Shown here piece after piece: positions 2,843 to 13,529 of a stretch of 64,000 bases of DNA. The DNA comes from an uncultured Methylomirabilota bacterium (lineage in GTDB: Bacteria > Methylomirabilota > Methylomirabilia > Methylomirabilales > 2-02-FULL-66-22). The stretch's first letter is position 1. Every line of letters starts with the position of its first letter. Under the pieces are notes generated by a model that had not been told where the DNA came from, searched no databases, and saw only the letters and a list, made by a program, of their open reading frames with translations. The stretch is taken from the NCBI GenBank assembly GCA_963705305.1, contig OY970067.1, positions 4,736,001-4,800,000 of the forward strand, given 5' to 3'. A program made the position numbers and the translations under genes.

Positions 2843-2926
2843 TGGTGCGAGAGGGGGGAGTTGAACCCCCACGGGTCGCCCCATCCCGCCCTAAACGGGA
2901 CGCGTCTGCCATTCCGCCACTCTCGC
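2843..2926 (-). tRNA. tRNA-Leu(TAG)
   Basis: GCGAGAGTGGCGGAATGGCAGACGCG-TCCCG TTTAGGG CGGGA; long variable arm; encoded CCA. Confidence 0.93.
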
Positions 2927-3025
2927 GGCAGGCACAGGACCCCCGCGACCTCGCCCGGCCGCAGGGTGCATCGGACGCCCGACGTGCGTTCAGTCATCTC
3001 CTCCGACGGTTCGGCATCCCTGGTG

Positions 3026-3101
<76 letters not shown>

Positions 3102-3200
3102 ATCCGTGCACTCAATCTGGGAATGCGGATTTCCGATTGGGGAATGAATCTTCACGCTCTCCCGGTTCCGCACTCCGCGCGCTGCATTCCGCAATAGATC

Positions 3201-3276
<76 letters not shown>

Positions 3277-3388
3277 CCCATCTGCACCGACCAGTTTTTC
3301 GATGACCACATCCCAATGCACACTGGCCGGAGAGTTGCCTTGCCCACGTGATCATTGGAAACTGGTCATTGGTCATTCACCCCGTCGC

Positions 3389-3465
3389 TGGCGCGCCCGG
3401 AGAGAATTGAACTCCCGACCTGCTGGTTCGAAGCCAGCCGCTCTATCCAACTGAGCTACGGGCGC
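3389..3465 (-). tRNA. tRNA-Arg(TCG)
   Basis: GCGCCCGTAGCTCAGTTGGATAGAGCG-GCTGG CTTCGAA CCAGC...CCA. Confidence 0.93.
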
Positions 3466-3492
3466 CTTGCCTCCTCCCCGGCCCGGGGCCGC

Positions 3493-3570
3493 TGGGGTGA
3501 ACGGAGGGACTCGAACCCTCAACCCCTGGAGCCACAGTCCAGTGCTCTGACCAATTGAGCTACGCTCACC
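3493..3570 (-). tRNA. tRNA-His(GTG)
   Basis: CTGGA CTGTGGC TCCAG anticodon arm; G-1 and C73; ends CCCCA. Confidence 0.95.
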
Positions 3571-3662
3571 ATGCCCCGCTGCGGGTCATGGAATGCGGAT
3601 TTCGGCATAAGGCGCCCTGCGCGCCCCTCTGCATTCCGCACTCCGCAATCCGAGACTGTCGC

Positions 3663-3740
3663 TGGCGCGCCTGGGGTGATTTGAACACCCGACACACGGC
3701 TCCGGAGGCCGTTGCTCTATCCGGGCTGAGCTACAGGCGC
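3663..3740 (-). tRNA. tRNA-Arg(CCG)
   Basis: ACGGC CTCCGGA GCCGT anticodon arm; GTTCAAATC T-loop; CCA. Confidence 0.95.
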
Positions 3741-3878
3741 AAATTCATAATGACCGATTCCCAATGACAGAATGACCGGTGGGGACTCTTCAGCTCCTGA
3801 TTGGTCATCGCTCTTTGTGTCATTGGCCATTCGATTCTCTCGTCCGGTTGGGGCGATCCTGCAACACCCTCTGCCCTA

Positions 3879-3955
<77 letters not shown>

Positions 3956-6000: not shown

Positions 6001-7431
6001 TCAGGACCCCACGGCGGCGGGAGCGCGGCCCCGTCCAACCCGCCGCTCGTACCGAACCTTGTATTTGGCGATCGCATCAAAGAGCGCCTCGGCGATCTGC
6101 TGCCGGTACGACTGCCTTTGAAGCTTTCGCTCCTCCTTGGGGTTGCTGATGAATGCGCTCTCCACCAGGACGGCCGGCATCGCCGCCGTGGCCAGGACGC
6201 GGAACGGTCCGGACTTTACGCCGCGGTTCTCCCCTTTGAGGAGCTTGTCCAGGGAGCCCAGCAAGAGCTCCGCTAGCCGCTCCGACTCCTTCATGTCCCG
6301 GCTGACCGCCATGTCTGCGAGGGTAGTCTTCAAGAGGGATTCCTGATCTGCTCCGGTCGCCCCGTCGGTCTGGATGACCAGGTTCTCACGCTGCGCGGAG
6401 GCGCGCGCGTCGTTGTCCGATGGCTCGCGGGTAAAATAGTATGTCTCGAACCCGTCCGTCCCGCGCTGCCCGCCCGCATTCATGTGGAGACTGATGAAGA
6501 AATCGGCCTTGGCGCGATTCGCAAAGGCGGTTCGCTCCTCCAGGGGCACGAAGACATCCGTCGTGCGCGTCATGAGAACGCGGACCCCCAGGCGGTCTTG
6601 GAGCAGCTTGCGGAGGCGGAGCGCCAGGTCCAGGACCACCTCCTTCTCCATGAGGCCCGTGGGTCCGATGGCCCCGGTGTCGTGACCCCCGTGTCCGGGA
6701 TCCAGGACGATGGTCAGCGGAGCGGCTTCCTCGGCGGGCCCCTCTTCCGGCGTGGCGGGAGACGCCTGGTTCGCGGCCGCCGCAGTTCCGGACGCTCGAG
6801 GCGTCCGTTCTTGGGGCGCCGCAGAGACCCGGGGAGCACCCGCAGCCGGTGCGGTTGCCCGAGGAGGCGCCTCGGGCGGCGCAGGGGCCGTCACGGGGGC
6901 GGGCGGCCTTGCGTGAGCCGTCTCAGGAGGACCGGCGTGGACATCCACGACGATCCGGTCCGGGCCCGCCAGGCTGAAGCTCTTCACGGATGTGCTGCGG
7001 GAATCGCAGAGCAGCGTGATCTCTGCGCCACCGGGACGTTGGGTCGTTCGGATCGACCTCACGATCCCGTCTTTCAGCCCGATTGAATGGATCGTCGAGG
7101 CCAGCAGACCCCCCGGAACAAGAATCTGCACACTGTCAGCCGTCCGGCGCTGCACCGACCATTCCCACGGCCTCGACATCTCGAGCACGATCCGGGTATA
7201 GGTCGGATATCTTCCGACGCGCAGCTTCGTAAGCGTAACCCCGTCCGCCCTCCCGGCCCTCACAGTCTGCCGGGCCGCGGCACTTGCCGCGCTTCTGTCC
7301 AATCCGGGGCGCGCCCCTGGGGCCGCCCAGCCCAGTTGAGCGGCAGCACATGCCAGGACTGCGGCTGAAACGAGGATCGGCGTCCAGCCATGACAGAAGC
7401 GCCAACGTTCTCCGCCCGTGTGGCAAATCAT
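6001..7431 (-). CDS. N-acetylmuramoyl-L-alanine amidase (AMIN domain + Amidase_3)
   Basis: Signal-like N-terminus, RIVLE/DRIVVDV AMIN motifs, IVLDPGHGGHD, FISLHMN, PAVLVESAFISN. Confidence 0.92.
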   Translation of the reverse strand: MICHTGGERWRFCHGWTPILVSAAVLACAAAQLGWAAPGARPGLDRSAASAAARQTVRAGRADGVTLTKLRVGRYPTYTRIVLEMSRPWEWSVQRRTADSVQILVPGGLLASTIHSIGLKDGIVRSIRTTQRPGGAEITLLCDSRSTSVKSFSLAGPDRIVVDVHAGPPETAHARPPAPVTAPAPPEAPPRATAPAAGAPRVSAAPQERTPRASGTAAAANQASPATPEEGPAEEAAPLTIVLDPGHGGHDTGAIGPTGLMEKEVVLDLALRLRKLLQDRLGVRVLMTRTTDVFVPLEERTAFANRAKADFFISLHMNAGGQRGTDGFETYYFTREPSDNDARASAQRENLVIQTDGATGADQESLLKTTLADMAVSRDMKESERLAELLLGSLDKLLKGENRGVKSGPFRVLATAAMPAVLVESAFISNPKEERKLQRQSYRQQIAEALFDAIAKYKVRYERRVGRGRAPAAVGS

Positions 7432-7553
7432 TTAATATTTCCGAGAGGTTCAGATGCTATCTGTAACACACTCCTTGCATCCTGTCAAACAACTCCTGAT
7501 AAATTCGCCATAAAGAACAGAAATGGGGACGATCAGCTGGCCAACCAATCAAA

Positions 7554-7591
7554 GCAAAAGGCCCCACGCCATTCGGCGTGGGGCCTTTTGC
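7554..7591 (-). terminator. Intrinsic terminator of the rrn operon
   Basis: GCAAAAGGCCCCACGCC-ATTC-GGCGTGGGGCCTTTTGC hairpin just past the 5S 3' end. Confidence 0.85.
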
Positions 7592-7598
7592 CTAATTA

Positions 7599-7716
7599 TC
7601 CCGGCGGCGACCTACTTTCCCACCCGGTTGCCCGAGCAGTATCATCGGCGCTGGAGGGCTTAACTGCCGTGTTCGGGATGGGAACGGGTGTGTCCCCTCC
7701 GCCATGGCCACCGGAA
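7599..7716 (-). rRNA. rrf: 5S rRNA
   Basis: TTCCGGTGGCCATGGCGGAGGGGACACACCCGTTCCCATCCCGAACACGGCAGTTAAG...GTAGGTCGCCGCCGG. Confidence 0.97.
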
Positions 7717-7745
7717 ATCGATACGTTTTCCTATGCGGCTGCGCT

Positions 7746-8075
7746 CTAGCGGCCGTCGTGGCCGACCGTCACCAGCTCCCGGATTCGAGCAAACTGCTTT
7801 TTGCCGAGAATCCGGCGCACTACCACGTCATCCAGATTTCGGTACGGACGGTTCCGCACCAGCCACTCCGCCGCTTGCGGCGAGATCCCCGGCAGACGAC
7901 TGAGCTCCTCTACCGTGGCGCGGTTCAGGTCGATCTTCCCTGCCGTCGGAACGCTTGAGGGTGCCGTCGCCGGCGCCGAGGTCTCCCTCCCCCCAAGCTG
8001 GGCGGTGGCATGCCACGCCAGGCCCGCCATCAATATCAGTGCGACAATGGCGACCACTACCAGAGCGCGCTGCAT
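7746..8075 (-). CDS. Secreted ComEA-like helix-hairpin-helix protein (109 aa) in the 23S-5S spacer
   Basis: MQRALVVVAIVALILMAGLAWHATA signal peptide, P/A/T linker, KIDLNRATVEELSRLPGISPQAAEWLVRNRPYRNLDDVV HhH_3-type domain. Confidence 0.85.
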   Translation of the reverse strand: MQRALVVVAIVALILMAGLAWHATAQLGGRETSAPATAPSSVPTAGKIDLNRATVEELSRLPGISPQAAEWLVRNRPYRNLDDVVVRRILGKKQFARIRELVTVGHDGR

Positions 8076-8142
8076 AGTGAAAAGAGAATAGCGATTGGGG
8101 TATCCACCCTGCTTCCCGGATAGACGATCCATAAGGAAAATG

Positions 8143-11158
<3,016 letters not shown>

Positions 11159-11200
11159 CATACGGATCGGTGAAACAGAGTGGATACCCAATCGCTATTC

Positions 11201-11215
11201 AGTTGTCAAAGAGCA
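11201..11215 (-). promoter_or_regulatory. Spacer boxA antiterminator
   Basis: TGCTCTTTGACAACT upstream of 23S; related leader boxA TGTTCTCTGACAAT at 13387-13400. Confidence 0.75.
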
Positions 11216-11269
11216 CAGCCCCCATTCCTGGGAGCTCTCTTCACCATCGATCACACGCCACATCAGCGC

Positions 11270-11345
11270 TGGTGGAGATGAGCGGAATCGAACCGCTGAC
11301 CCCCTGCTTGCAAAGCAGGTGCTCTCCCGTCTGAGCTACATCCCC
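11270..11345 (-). tRNA. tRNA-Ala(TGC)
   Basis: GGGGATGTAGCTCAG...CCTGC TTTGCAA GCAGG...CTCCACCA in the 16S-23S ITS. Confidence 0.96.
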
Positions 11346-11415: not shown

Positions 11416-11492
11416 TGGTGGGCCTTCCTGGGATCGAACCAGGGACCTCACGCTTATCAAGCGTGCGCTCTAGCCAGCTGAGCTAAAGGCCC
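11416..11492 (-). tRNA. tRNA-Ile(GAT)
   Basis: GGGCCTTTAGCTCAG...CACGC TTGATAA GCGTG...CCCACCA in the ITS. Confidence 0.96.
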
Positions 11493-11717: not shown

Positions 11718-13284
<1,567 letters not shown>

Positions 13285-13431
13285 AAACTCGCTCTCTCAT
13301 GCGAGAGATCTCGGACCACCCCGTCCTTGCGGACGGGTGTGGAATTGTGCGTGTGTCCACCCACAAGCCAGTAGCAATGATATTCGATTGTCAGAGAACA
13401 GAAATGGCGGGCTGAGATGCCCCCGCCACAT

Positions 13432-13529
13432 AATGTAGAACAACTGCCGCGAAGCTGTCAAGGTCTCTCGGAAGAAACCCGATATCCGGCAAGACCCTGT
13501 TTTTTACCAGTACTTCATAGAATTGTCAA
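13432..13529 (-). promoter_or_regulatory. Tandem sigma70-type rrn promoters
   Basis: TTGACA(13524-13529)-17-TAAAAA and TTGACA(13456-13461)-18-TACATT followed by a GC-rich discriminator. Confidence 0.7.

Follow-up and report, generated by a model that had tools for sequence, protein, structure and literature searches.

A helix-hairpin-helix protein gene under purifying selection lies between the 23S and 5S rRNA genes in Methylomirabilota

Textbooks present ribosomal RNA (rRNA) operons as non-coding transcription units, whose transcripts are produced by a specialised antitermination complex with no coupling to translation. The rrn operon of an uncultured Methylomirabilota bacterium raises the question of why an open reading frame (ORF) for a protein should stand between its 23S and 5S genes, and of how such a frame would be expressed. 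We address this question for a 64,000-nt stretch of contig OY970067.1 (assembly GCA_963705305.1, positions 4,736,001 to 4,800,000), referred to here in its full length as the window. The genome is one 5.65-Mb contig in which a single 5S gene is counted, and its only rrn operon, read from the minus strand, comprises according to Rfam the 16S gene, tRNA-Ile, tRNA-Ala, the 23S gene, the ORF-bearing spacer and the 5S gene (Table 1). The spacer ORF is a functional gene under purifying selection, not a chance frame, and it encodes a small protein of the helix-hairpin-helix (HhH) fold whose slot directly upstream of the 5S gene recurs in related genomes.

The first-pass annotation of this DNA had called a co-oriented, uninterrupted ORF of 109 amino acids at 7746-8075 that stops 30 nt before the 5S gene, and both statements agree with ORF calls and with the Rfam boundaries of the flanking genes; on the other side, the ATG follows the 3′ end of the 23S gene after 66 nt. 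The ORF fits the layout of spacer-embedded protein genes, being co-oriented between two rRNA genes, at short distances from both and with no opposite-strand gene between. An extended frame could be read from an ATG at 8132 or from a GTG inside the 23S gene; these starts are unsupported, because the conserved start of the orthologs aligns with the M-(R/K)-R at 8075.

Among 41 genomes of the order, a search returned homologs at 36-58% identity. The best 15 all adjoin a 5S gene, with the 3′ end of the 23S gene also in view in 14; the fifteenth, in genome G010, has a broken frame and lies where its contig begins. When a profile was run against 151 genomes of the phylum (the unpublished genome G080 enters these tallies and no other claim), 17 places scored 117-149 bits and the next best 87.5 bits, and every place with at least 117 bits sits directly upstream of a 5S gene. 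The same slot is occupied in five further genomes of the window's genus from the order search and in one genome of family f8 (families carry our own labels), which belongs to another order of the class. An intact ORF directly upstream of the 5S gene is present in 23 genomes from four Methylomirabilota families, and the 23S gene is also visible in 22 of these; the contig of the remaining genome, G098, ends before it.

Divergence among these sequences is that of a protein-coding gene. The ratio of nonsynonymous to synonymous divergence (dN/dS, Nei-Gojobori) lies between 0.14 and 0.57 in all 50 computable pairs, seven more pairs being saturated for dS. The mean pairwise differences at codon positions 1, 2 and 3 are 0.46, 0.38 and 0.63, the third position being the most variable, and 12 alignment columns are invariant, all within the HhH domain except Met1. 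The GC content at the three codon positions (0.71, 0.49 and 0.77) is like that of neighbouring genes, the value for the 23S gene being 0.58. The survey of related spacers and the dN/dS estimate that the first-pass annotation had proposed as checks thus came out in its favour, and misassembly, which it had named as a danger, is excluded because the arrangement is repeated in 22 other independent assemblies.

About 147 nt upstream of the 16S gene there is a promoter-like site, one such site being found compared with a mean of 0.1 in shuffled sequences. The 16S-23S spacer carries GCTCTTTGACAA, which we take to be a boxA-like antitermination element, immediately 5′ of the core of the 23S processing stem; it is exact in the 23S 5′ flanks of 10 of 12 relatives and has one mismatch in the other two (G030 and G081). 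At the far end of the operon, a hairpin 3′ of the 5S gene (GGCCCCACGCC/GGCGUGGGGCC, followed by a U-run) folds at -40.5 kcal/mol and matches the claim that the sole terminator follows the 5S gene. Between 7300 and 8400, an interval that runs from the last 259 nt of the 23S gene through the 5S gene, a consensus scan for sigma-70 promoters, which is blind to weak or non-sigma-70 promoters, gave no promoter-like hit on the operon strand, and a pattern scan, which also missed the folded hairpin after the 5S gene, found no terminator-like site.

RNA libraries containing a relative of the window organism bear on the same question. Genome G043 is a one-contig genome of the genus Methylomirabilis, from a family different from that of the window organism; part of its locus (L061) is contained in 14 RNA runs from seven studies, and four runs from two studies were examined as contigs. 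In runs X1 and X2 (study P1), contigs with zero mismatches cover the 5S gene together with the 3′ two-thirds of the ORF (1345-1707 and 1306-1669, respectively), and further contigs, likewise free of mismatches, extend from the 5′ third of the ORF over the leader into some 230-250 nt of the 23S gene (1736-2098 and 1735-1969). A 455-nt contig from run X6 (study P2; 1405-1860) spans the whole spacer. In both X1 and X2 the depth drops to zero at 1188-1281, immediately beyond the 5S gene; these libraries thus do not consist of uniform DNA, which argues against DNA carry-over. The depths of 668 and 64 in X1, for the 5S contig and the 23S-end contig respectively, are whole-contig means that include rRNA, and no expression level is drawn from them. 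These contigs show that RNA is continuous across the 23S-ORF and ORF-5S junctions in G043. Co-transcription with pre-rRNA, as the first-pass annotation had it, is thus supported by the lack of promoter- or terminator-like sites within the scanned interval, by the terminator after the 5S gene and by the G043 contigs over both junctions. Separately, one 1204-nt contig of X2 passes from the ORF through the 5S gene and, from the 3′ end of that gene (at position 1306 of L061), continues for 840 nt unlike the downstream region of G043; it is either chimeric or derived from a strain with another downstream neighbour.

Table 1. Positions of the rrn operon, the spacer gene and adjoining features in the window
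Feature	Position	Strand	Basis or remark
Candidate rrn promoter, TTGACA-18-TACATT	13432..13461	-	10/12 consensus match only
16S rRNA gene	11724..13285	-	Rfam RF00177, 1612 bits
tRNA-Ile(GAT)	11416-11492	-	ARAGORN, Rfam; in 16S-23S spacer
tRNA-Ala(TGC)	11270-11345	-	ARAGORN, Rfam; in 16S-23S spacer
23S processing stem, 5′ strand	11158..11247	-	Cofold
boxA-like GCTCTTTGACAA	11203..11214	-	Within 16S-23S spacer
23S rRNA gene	8142..11157	-	Rfam RF02541, 2921 bits, full length, model positions 1-2925
23S-5S spacer	8141..7716	-	426 nt
23S processing stem, 3′ strand	8074..8136	-	Cofold; equals the ORF's 5′ leader plus A and U of the ATG
109-aa ORF (P0001), HhH protein	7746..8075 including stop	-	ATG 8075, TAG 7746; uninterrupted, operon-oriented
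Putative N-terminal signal peptide or membrane anchor	8001..8075	-	Residues 1-25; sequence inspection
HHH_3 domain	7770..7940	-	Residues 46-102; Pfam, AF2, Foldseek
Gap from stop codon to 5S	7716..7745	-	30 nt, without terminator
5S rRNA gene	7599..7715	-	Rfam RF00001, 108.7 bits
Intrinsic terminator after 5S	7551..7585	-	11-bp GC stem, GAAU loop, U-run
AMIN/Amidase_3 (AmiC-like) gene	6001..7431	-	Pfam 181.8 bits; after the terminator, outside the rrn unit

The leader of the ORF coincides with a strand of the 23S processing stem. Cofolding the 5′ strand with the first 70 nt of the spacer gave -95.0 kcal/mol, compared with -54.9 +/- 3.3 kcal/mol for 100 shuffles of the 3′ strand. A stem pairing 8086-8130 with 11161-11200, with the ATG some 10 nt past it, had been proposed; the cofold recovers it as the core of a longer duplex, whereas the ATG abuts the pairing instead of lying beyond it. 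Through an extra 12-bp helix (11236-11247 with 8074-8085) the pairing reaches the start codon, whose A and U make the last pairs; all 66 nt of the leader thus belong to the stem's 3′ strand. In the genus Methylomirabilis (our g7), whose leader measures only some 30 nt, the predicted stem extends over a Shine-Dalgarno (SD)-like (A)GGA and on through the start codon to codon 6 (GCGAUCCGG : CGGAUCGC). The word upstream of the start differs among groups: the window's genus has no SD sequence, family f2 has a strong GGAGG-type SD-like word, and g7 has the weak (A)GGA. Once the 5′ strand is lost, the probability that the start region is unpaired rises from 0.19 to 0.36 at the window locus (L001) and from 0.29 to 0.50 at L006. 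Unmasking of the start site was considered as a conserved mechanism and dropped, since accessibility is mixed across the 11 genomes folded.

The protein begins with MQRALVVVAIVALILMAGLAWHATA|QLGG, that is, MQR followed by 18 hydrophobic residues and A-T-A|Q, and continues into a linker rich in P, A, T and S. The first-pass annotation had described a signal peptide and a P/A/T linker, and a hydrophobic leader and the linker are apparent on inspection; the maximum Kyte-Doolittle value over 19 residues is 2.49, and the AlphaFold (AF2) model places a helix at residues 3-27. This N-terminus looks like a Sec signal peptide or anchor, and an A-x-A|Q site is common to five of nine orthologs from the same genus. 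The part beyond it (residues 26-109) is strongly basic, with a pI of about 10.8 for the predicted mature protein. The domain matches Pfam HHH_3 (PF12836) with an E-value of 7.5e-11 and 42.4 bits, compared with a cut-off of 27, and a six-frame search of the genome for HHH_3 also recovers the spacer ORF (43.1 bits). The nearest solved structures by sequence are an EEPD1 chain (1.2e-11), the Thermus ComEA-related structure 2duy (1.9e-10), Geobacillus ComEA (8dss) and many PsbU chains. An AlphaFold model built with 15 orthologs as input has pLDDT values of 82-91 over the domain, and Foldseek aligns it to 2duy with a TM score of 0.80 and a root-mean-square deviation of 1.2 Å.

The first-pass annotation had called the domain ComEA/HhH_3-type. 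The HHH_3 part of this assignment stands, whereas the NCBIfam ComEA models score far below their cut-offs (26.7 versus 152.35 bits for TIGR01259 comE and 22.3 versus 53.1 bits for TIGR00426). A canonical ComEA-like gene of the GPF...GIG type is found elsewhere in the genome (G000:C1:4578826-4579011, 162 aa, HHH_3 76.1 bits), as is ComEC (at 3443319), and neither is near the rrn operon. Because it fails the ComEA models and a better ComEA-like gene lies elsewhere, the spacer protein is best regarded as a divergent, 'RPY-type' member of the fold and not as the cell's ComEA; 'ComEA-like' is valid for it at the fold and Pfam level only. Public annotations of the relatives' proteins read 'DNA uptake protein ComE-like', 'helix-hairpin-helix domain-containing protein' or hypothetical.

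Taken as a whole, these observations are in our judgement probably best explained by a selected gene that is transcribed within pre-rRNA, released by cleavage of the stem, translated without an SD sequence, and exported as a binder of polyanions. In this model, the gene would be transcribed only from the rrn promoter, as part of a 16S-tRNA-tRNA-23S-ORF-5S precursor. Cleavage of the 23S stem, presumably by RNase III, would leave a 3′ fragment consisting of leader, ORF and 5S, and the 5S precursor would therefore double as the message until trimming separated the 5S from it, 30 nt past the stop codon. In the window's genus, the message would be translated without an SD sequence, and the basic product, once exported or anchored in the membrane, would act outside the cytoplasm as a binder of nucleic acid or of some other polyanion. 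The RNase III cut and any coupling of the gene's expression to growth rate are inferences. It is also plausible that a weak ribosome-binding site balances transcription from the most heavily transcribed operon of the cell.

Several observations weigh against this model. Upstream of the ORF no SD sequence is visible (ctattctcttttcactATG), as the first-pass annotation had reported, even though the 16S tail has CCUCC, and in 9 of the 11 genomes the partition-function accessibility of the start region stays flat or falls when the 5′ strand is lost. The gene is dispensable, having been deleted in one genome of the genus (G013) and having decayed in another (G014), and it is not found in families f4 and f5. 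A weak promoter within the 3′ end of the 23S gene would be compatible with the outcome of the sigma-70 consensus scan. The RNA support comes from contigs of a relative in another family, which are silent on 5′ ends, strand and level; the X6 contig that spans the spacer holds just 15-23 nt on each rRNA side, under the 31-nt bridging rule, and the contigs of X1 and X2 break at 1707/1736. We attribute this break to an assembly bubble at a strain single-nucleotide polymorphism at 1722 (T>C in X6), which appears more apt than a processing site. Translation, export and nucleic-acid binding are suggested by homology and sequence inspection, and since the spacer protein falls below the NCBIfam ComEA models, DNA binding is proposed by analogy only.

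A first alternative, which we consider unlikely, retains the same route of expression and differs in the role of the product, the protein being an extracytoplasmic structural or docking subunit in the manner of PsbU, perhaps tied to a septal amidase of the AmiC type. PsbU, the 12-kDa extrinsic protein of photosystem II, is likewise small and exported and has the same HhH fold. The spacer protein marginally passes Pfam PsbU (PF06514; 29.3 versus 24.5 bits), PsbU chains are among its top fold matches, and its second hairpin is degenerate, with VLGKK in place of GIG. The match to the NCBIfam PsbU equivalog (NF002708) is, however, under the cut-off (39.3 versus 85 bits), the first hairpin, LPGI(S/T)P, is canonical, and the pI of the predicted mature protein is that expected of a polyanion binder. 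To our knowledge, the host phylum Methylomirabilota is not photosynthetic.

The suggested link to an amidase draws on the gene neighbourhood. A co-oriented AMIN/Amidase_3 gene lies downstream of the 5S gene in the window and in all 12 f1/f7 loci scanned (loci with this neighbour: L004-L013, L017, L061 and L078), and in the f10 genome G162 a free-standing HhH homolog stands directly upstream of an Amidase_3 gene (L055 1501-2984). From these two arrangements, the neighbourhood of HhH and amidase genes seems older than the placement of a 5S gene between them. Against a general association, the neighbours at the 17 free-standing loci of f9 and f10 are varied, including ThiF/rhodanese genes at four, ferritin at three (two of which also adjoin CitMHS), HtrA-like genes at two and Amidase_3 at one; no competence gene was found beside the free homologs at these 17 loci. 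In the window, the amidase is followed by a Germane-domain gene, RNase PH and Ham1, and these genes lie between the rrn operon and a cluster of nine tRNA genes (window 2846-3955, minus strand) located about 3.6 kb downstream of the operon on the same strand.

A promoter of its own in the 23S 3′ end or in the leader, giving an independent and possibly leaderless mRNA to which read-through from the 23S gene would be incidental, is improbable on our reading of the evidence. Such a promoter might be weak or of a non-sigma-70 type and so escape the consensus scan, and transcript 5′ ends are not visible in contigs; moreover, the leader of about 30 nt in g7 is AT-rich and has TATAGG/TATTGG-like words 10-15 nt before the start codon. 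Base pairing to the stem's 5′ strand (AUACAG : CUGUAU) nevertheless accounts for these words, and a -35 element would fall within conserved 23S sequence. The empty scan of the operon strand and the mismatch-free passage of G043 RNA contigs from the 23S gene into the ORF also argue against an independent message.

It is quite improbable that the ORF is co-transcribed and hardly or never translated, persisting as a passenger of the spacer like the S23p ORF of Coxiella burnetii, which lies in an intervening sequence (IVS) at helix 45 of the 23S gene and whose protein appears not to be made in vivo (PMC4990558). That precedent, the missing SD sequence in the window's genus, a start codon in or beside a very stable helix, and the losses without replacement in G013 and G014 along with the failure to find a homolog in f4 and f5 would all suit a passenger. 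Purifying selection at the amino-acid level in every computable pair, with the third codon position the most variable and 12 columns invariant, speaks for translation instead, as do frames that are intact in 23 genomes of four families and a GC content at third positions typical of the genome. SD-like words at the right distance, GGAGG-type in f2 and (A)GGA in g7, and clear signal peptides in the free orthologs of the sister order point the same way. That the frame arose by faulty assembly, or by chance in a long spacer of high GC content, has next to no probability and is already refuted: GC-rich DNA is rich in spurious ORFs, with 19 overlapping frames here, but the HHH_3 match above its cut-off, the codon-position pattern, the same-slot orthologs in 22 other assemblies and the junction-spanning RNA-library contigs of G043 all contradict it.

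The proposed route of expression, by stem cleavage of pre-rRNA, can be set beside the history of the slot. A survey of 5S loci in 33 genomes found 23S-5S spacers of 59-111 nt in eight genomes of f9, 69-72 nt in two of f10, 56-58 nt in three of f4 and 55 nt in one of f5, all without the ORF; the spacer of the single f8 genome measures 380 nt and has it. Two f1 genomes of the window's genus depart from their relatives. In G013 the spacer is reduced to 76 nt and the ORF is cleanly deleted, with the genus-typical leader fused directly to the pre-5S trailer (L078 1618-1693), whereas in G014 a spacer of 160 nt (L079 1618-1777) keeps the leader, ATGCGACGC, an early TAG stop and a decayed remnant of the C-terminal KQFARIR codons. 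Because G013 nests inside the ORF-bearing genus on a tree of 23S and 5S sequences, its lack of the gene is a loss, and no free copy of the spacer gene is detectable with the query in either genome. The phylum profile search of 151 genomes likewise returned no homolog in f4 or f5. An apparent lack of a 23S gene upstream of the 5S gene at L063 (G162) is due to N bases and is not counted as a finding.

Homologs in f9 and f10 score 60-88 bits, have clear A-x-A|Q signal peptides (the site recurring in most of the free f9 proteins) and are free-standing, no rRNA gene being found within 1.5 kb at any of 17 loci. On the protein tree, these free copies form one clade (support 100/99) that is sister to the rrn-embedded protein of f2 (97/98) and that is nested among the rrn copies when the tree is rooted on canonical ComEA-like proteins. 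With p 0.173, an approximately unbiased (AU) test is also compatible with a single clade of rrn copies, so that either arrangement, rrn-embedded or free, may have come first, and on the 23S and 5S tree f1, f7, f8, f4 and f5 form a polytomy. Some genomes of the window's genus also carry a second, free homolog besides the rrn-embedded one (52-71 bits to the profile; L031 in G005:C6, L032 in G010:C50, G002:C390 and G020:C1:493652), and in G005 the free copy is followed, after about 640 nt, by a SAM riboswitch. In two f9 loci (L075 in G154 and L076 in G160), about 1390 nt of the 3′ half of the 23S gene align to about 1091 model positions (1834/1835-2925), a difference that suggests an insertion of about 300 nt, possibly an intervening sequence or an intron.

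How the locus relates to known systems can be judged from four comparisons. By sequence and fold, the best full-domain match is Thermus 2duy, with which the spacer protein shares an 'RPY' motif. Like that protein and the periplasmic or membrane-anchored DNA-binding competence proteins of the ComEA/ComE type, such as Vibrio cholerae ComEA (PMC3879209), it is basic, with a flexible linker and one (HhH)2 domain of the HHH_3 family, and its putative segment for export or anchoring stands in the corresponding N-terminal place. It differs from ComEA in failing TIGR01259 and TIGR00426, in a second hairpin without GIG and in its separation from the ComEA-like gene and ComEC of the cell. Literature searches showed no ComEA gene inside an rRNA operon, and none is otherwise known to us.

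In E. coli, the precursor of 5S is 9S RNA, which RNase III liberates and RNase E cuts. The fragment between the cut in the 23S stem and the terminator would be the counterpart of 9S RNA, with the difference that 9S RNA is short and non-coding, whereas the fragment in the window would carry a coding sequence of 330 nt. The ORFs of 23S IVSs likewise lie within the rrn primary transcript and are bounded by a processing helix. They are situated inside the 23S gene, however, as mobile or selfish elements of an unrelated family, whereas the spacer gene stands wholly downstream of the 23S gene, is vertically inherited under purifying selection and belongs to HHH_3.

A precedent for position is that of the Candidate Phyla Radiation (CPR)/Patescibacteria, for which Lui et al. 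(2021; PMC8172020) describe co-oriented protein genes between 23S and 5S genes and count them in the operon. Those genes are often homing endonucleases or orphans, in ultra-small genomes with many unlinked operons. Methylomirabilota are in contrast free-living with genomes of 2.5-7 Mb, and their spacer gene has an identifiable domain family, conservation of the slot at the level of the order, and support from RNA libraries. Protein genes between rRNA genes (in CPR) and ORFs within 23S intervening sequences are thus already known; a literature search, with most subscription journals outside it, found no published description of the arrangement in Methylomirabilota. What is new is its occurrence in a free-living phylum with mid-sized genomes, for an identifiable HhH family predicted to be exported, in a slot held across four families with losses, with a leader that is itself the processing stem and with RNA-library support.

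These features also matter for annotation and binning, in that the gene sits on rRNA contigs that assemblers break and binners misplace. Three contigs carrying the rrn-embedded gene (L035, L036 and L042) have NCBI titles naming Baltobacteraceae, 'bacterium' and 'Patescibacteria group'; since the gene and the flanking rRNA resemble those of Methylomirabilales, they are probably mis-binned rRNA contigs.

A bolder and decidedly tentative extension of the model would make the 5S precursor a translated messenger throughout the Methylomirabilales, each passage of the polymerase along the single rrn operon yielding one message for an exported protein of DNA-binding type. The start lying inside the RNase III stem, maturation of the rRNA would license translation, and an envelope function would be coupled stoichiometrically to ribosome synthesis. 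The embedded layout could be older than the split of the class, as in the protein tree the sister order's free copies branch from within the rrn-embedded set; the AU test, however, leaves room for the reverse. If the ORF is translated, processed fragments of pre-rRNA can act as mRNAs outside the reduced genomes of CPR. The locus offers a tractable case for how ribosomes start on an RNase III product without an SD sequence, for which Methylomirabilis enrichments have RNA-seq data, and the spacer gene provides a natural read-out of rrn transcription in methane and nitrite cyclers that grow slowly and are uncultured.

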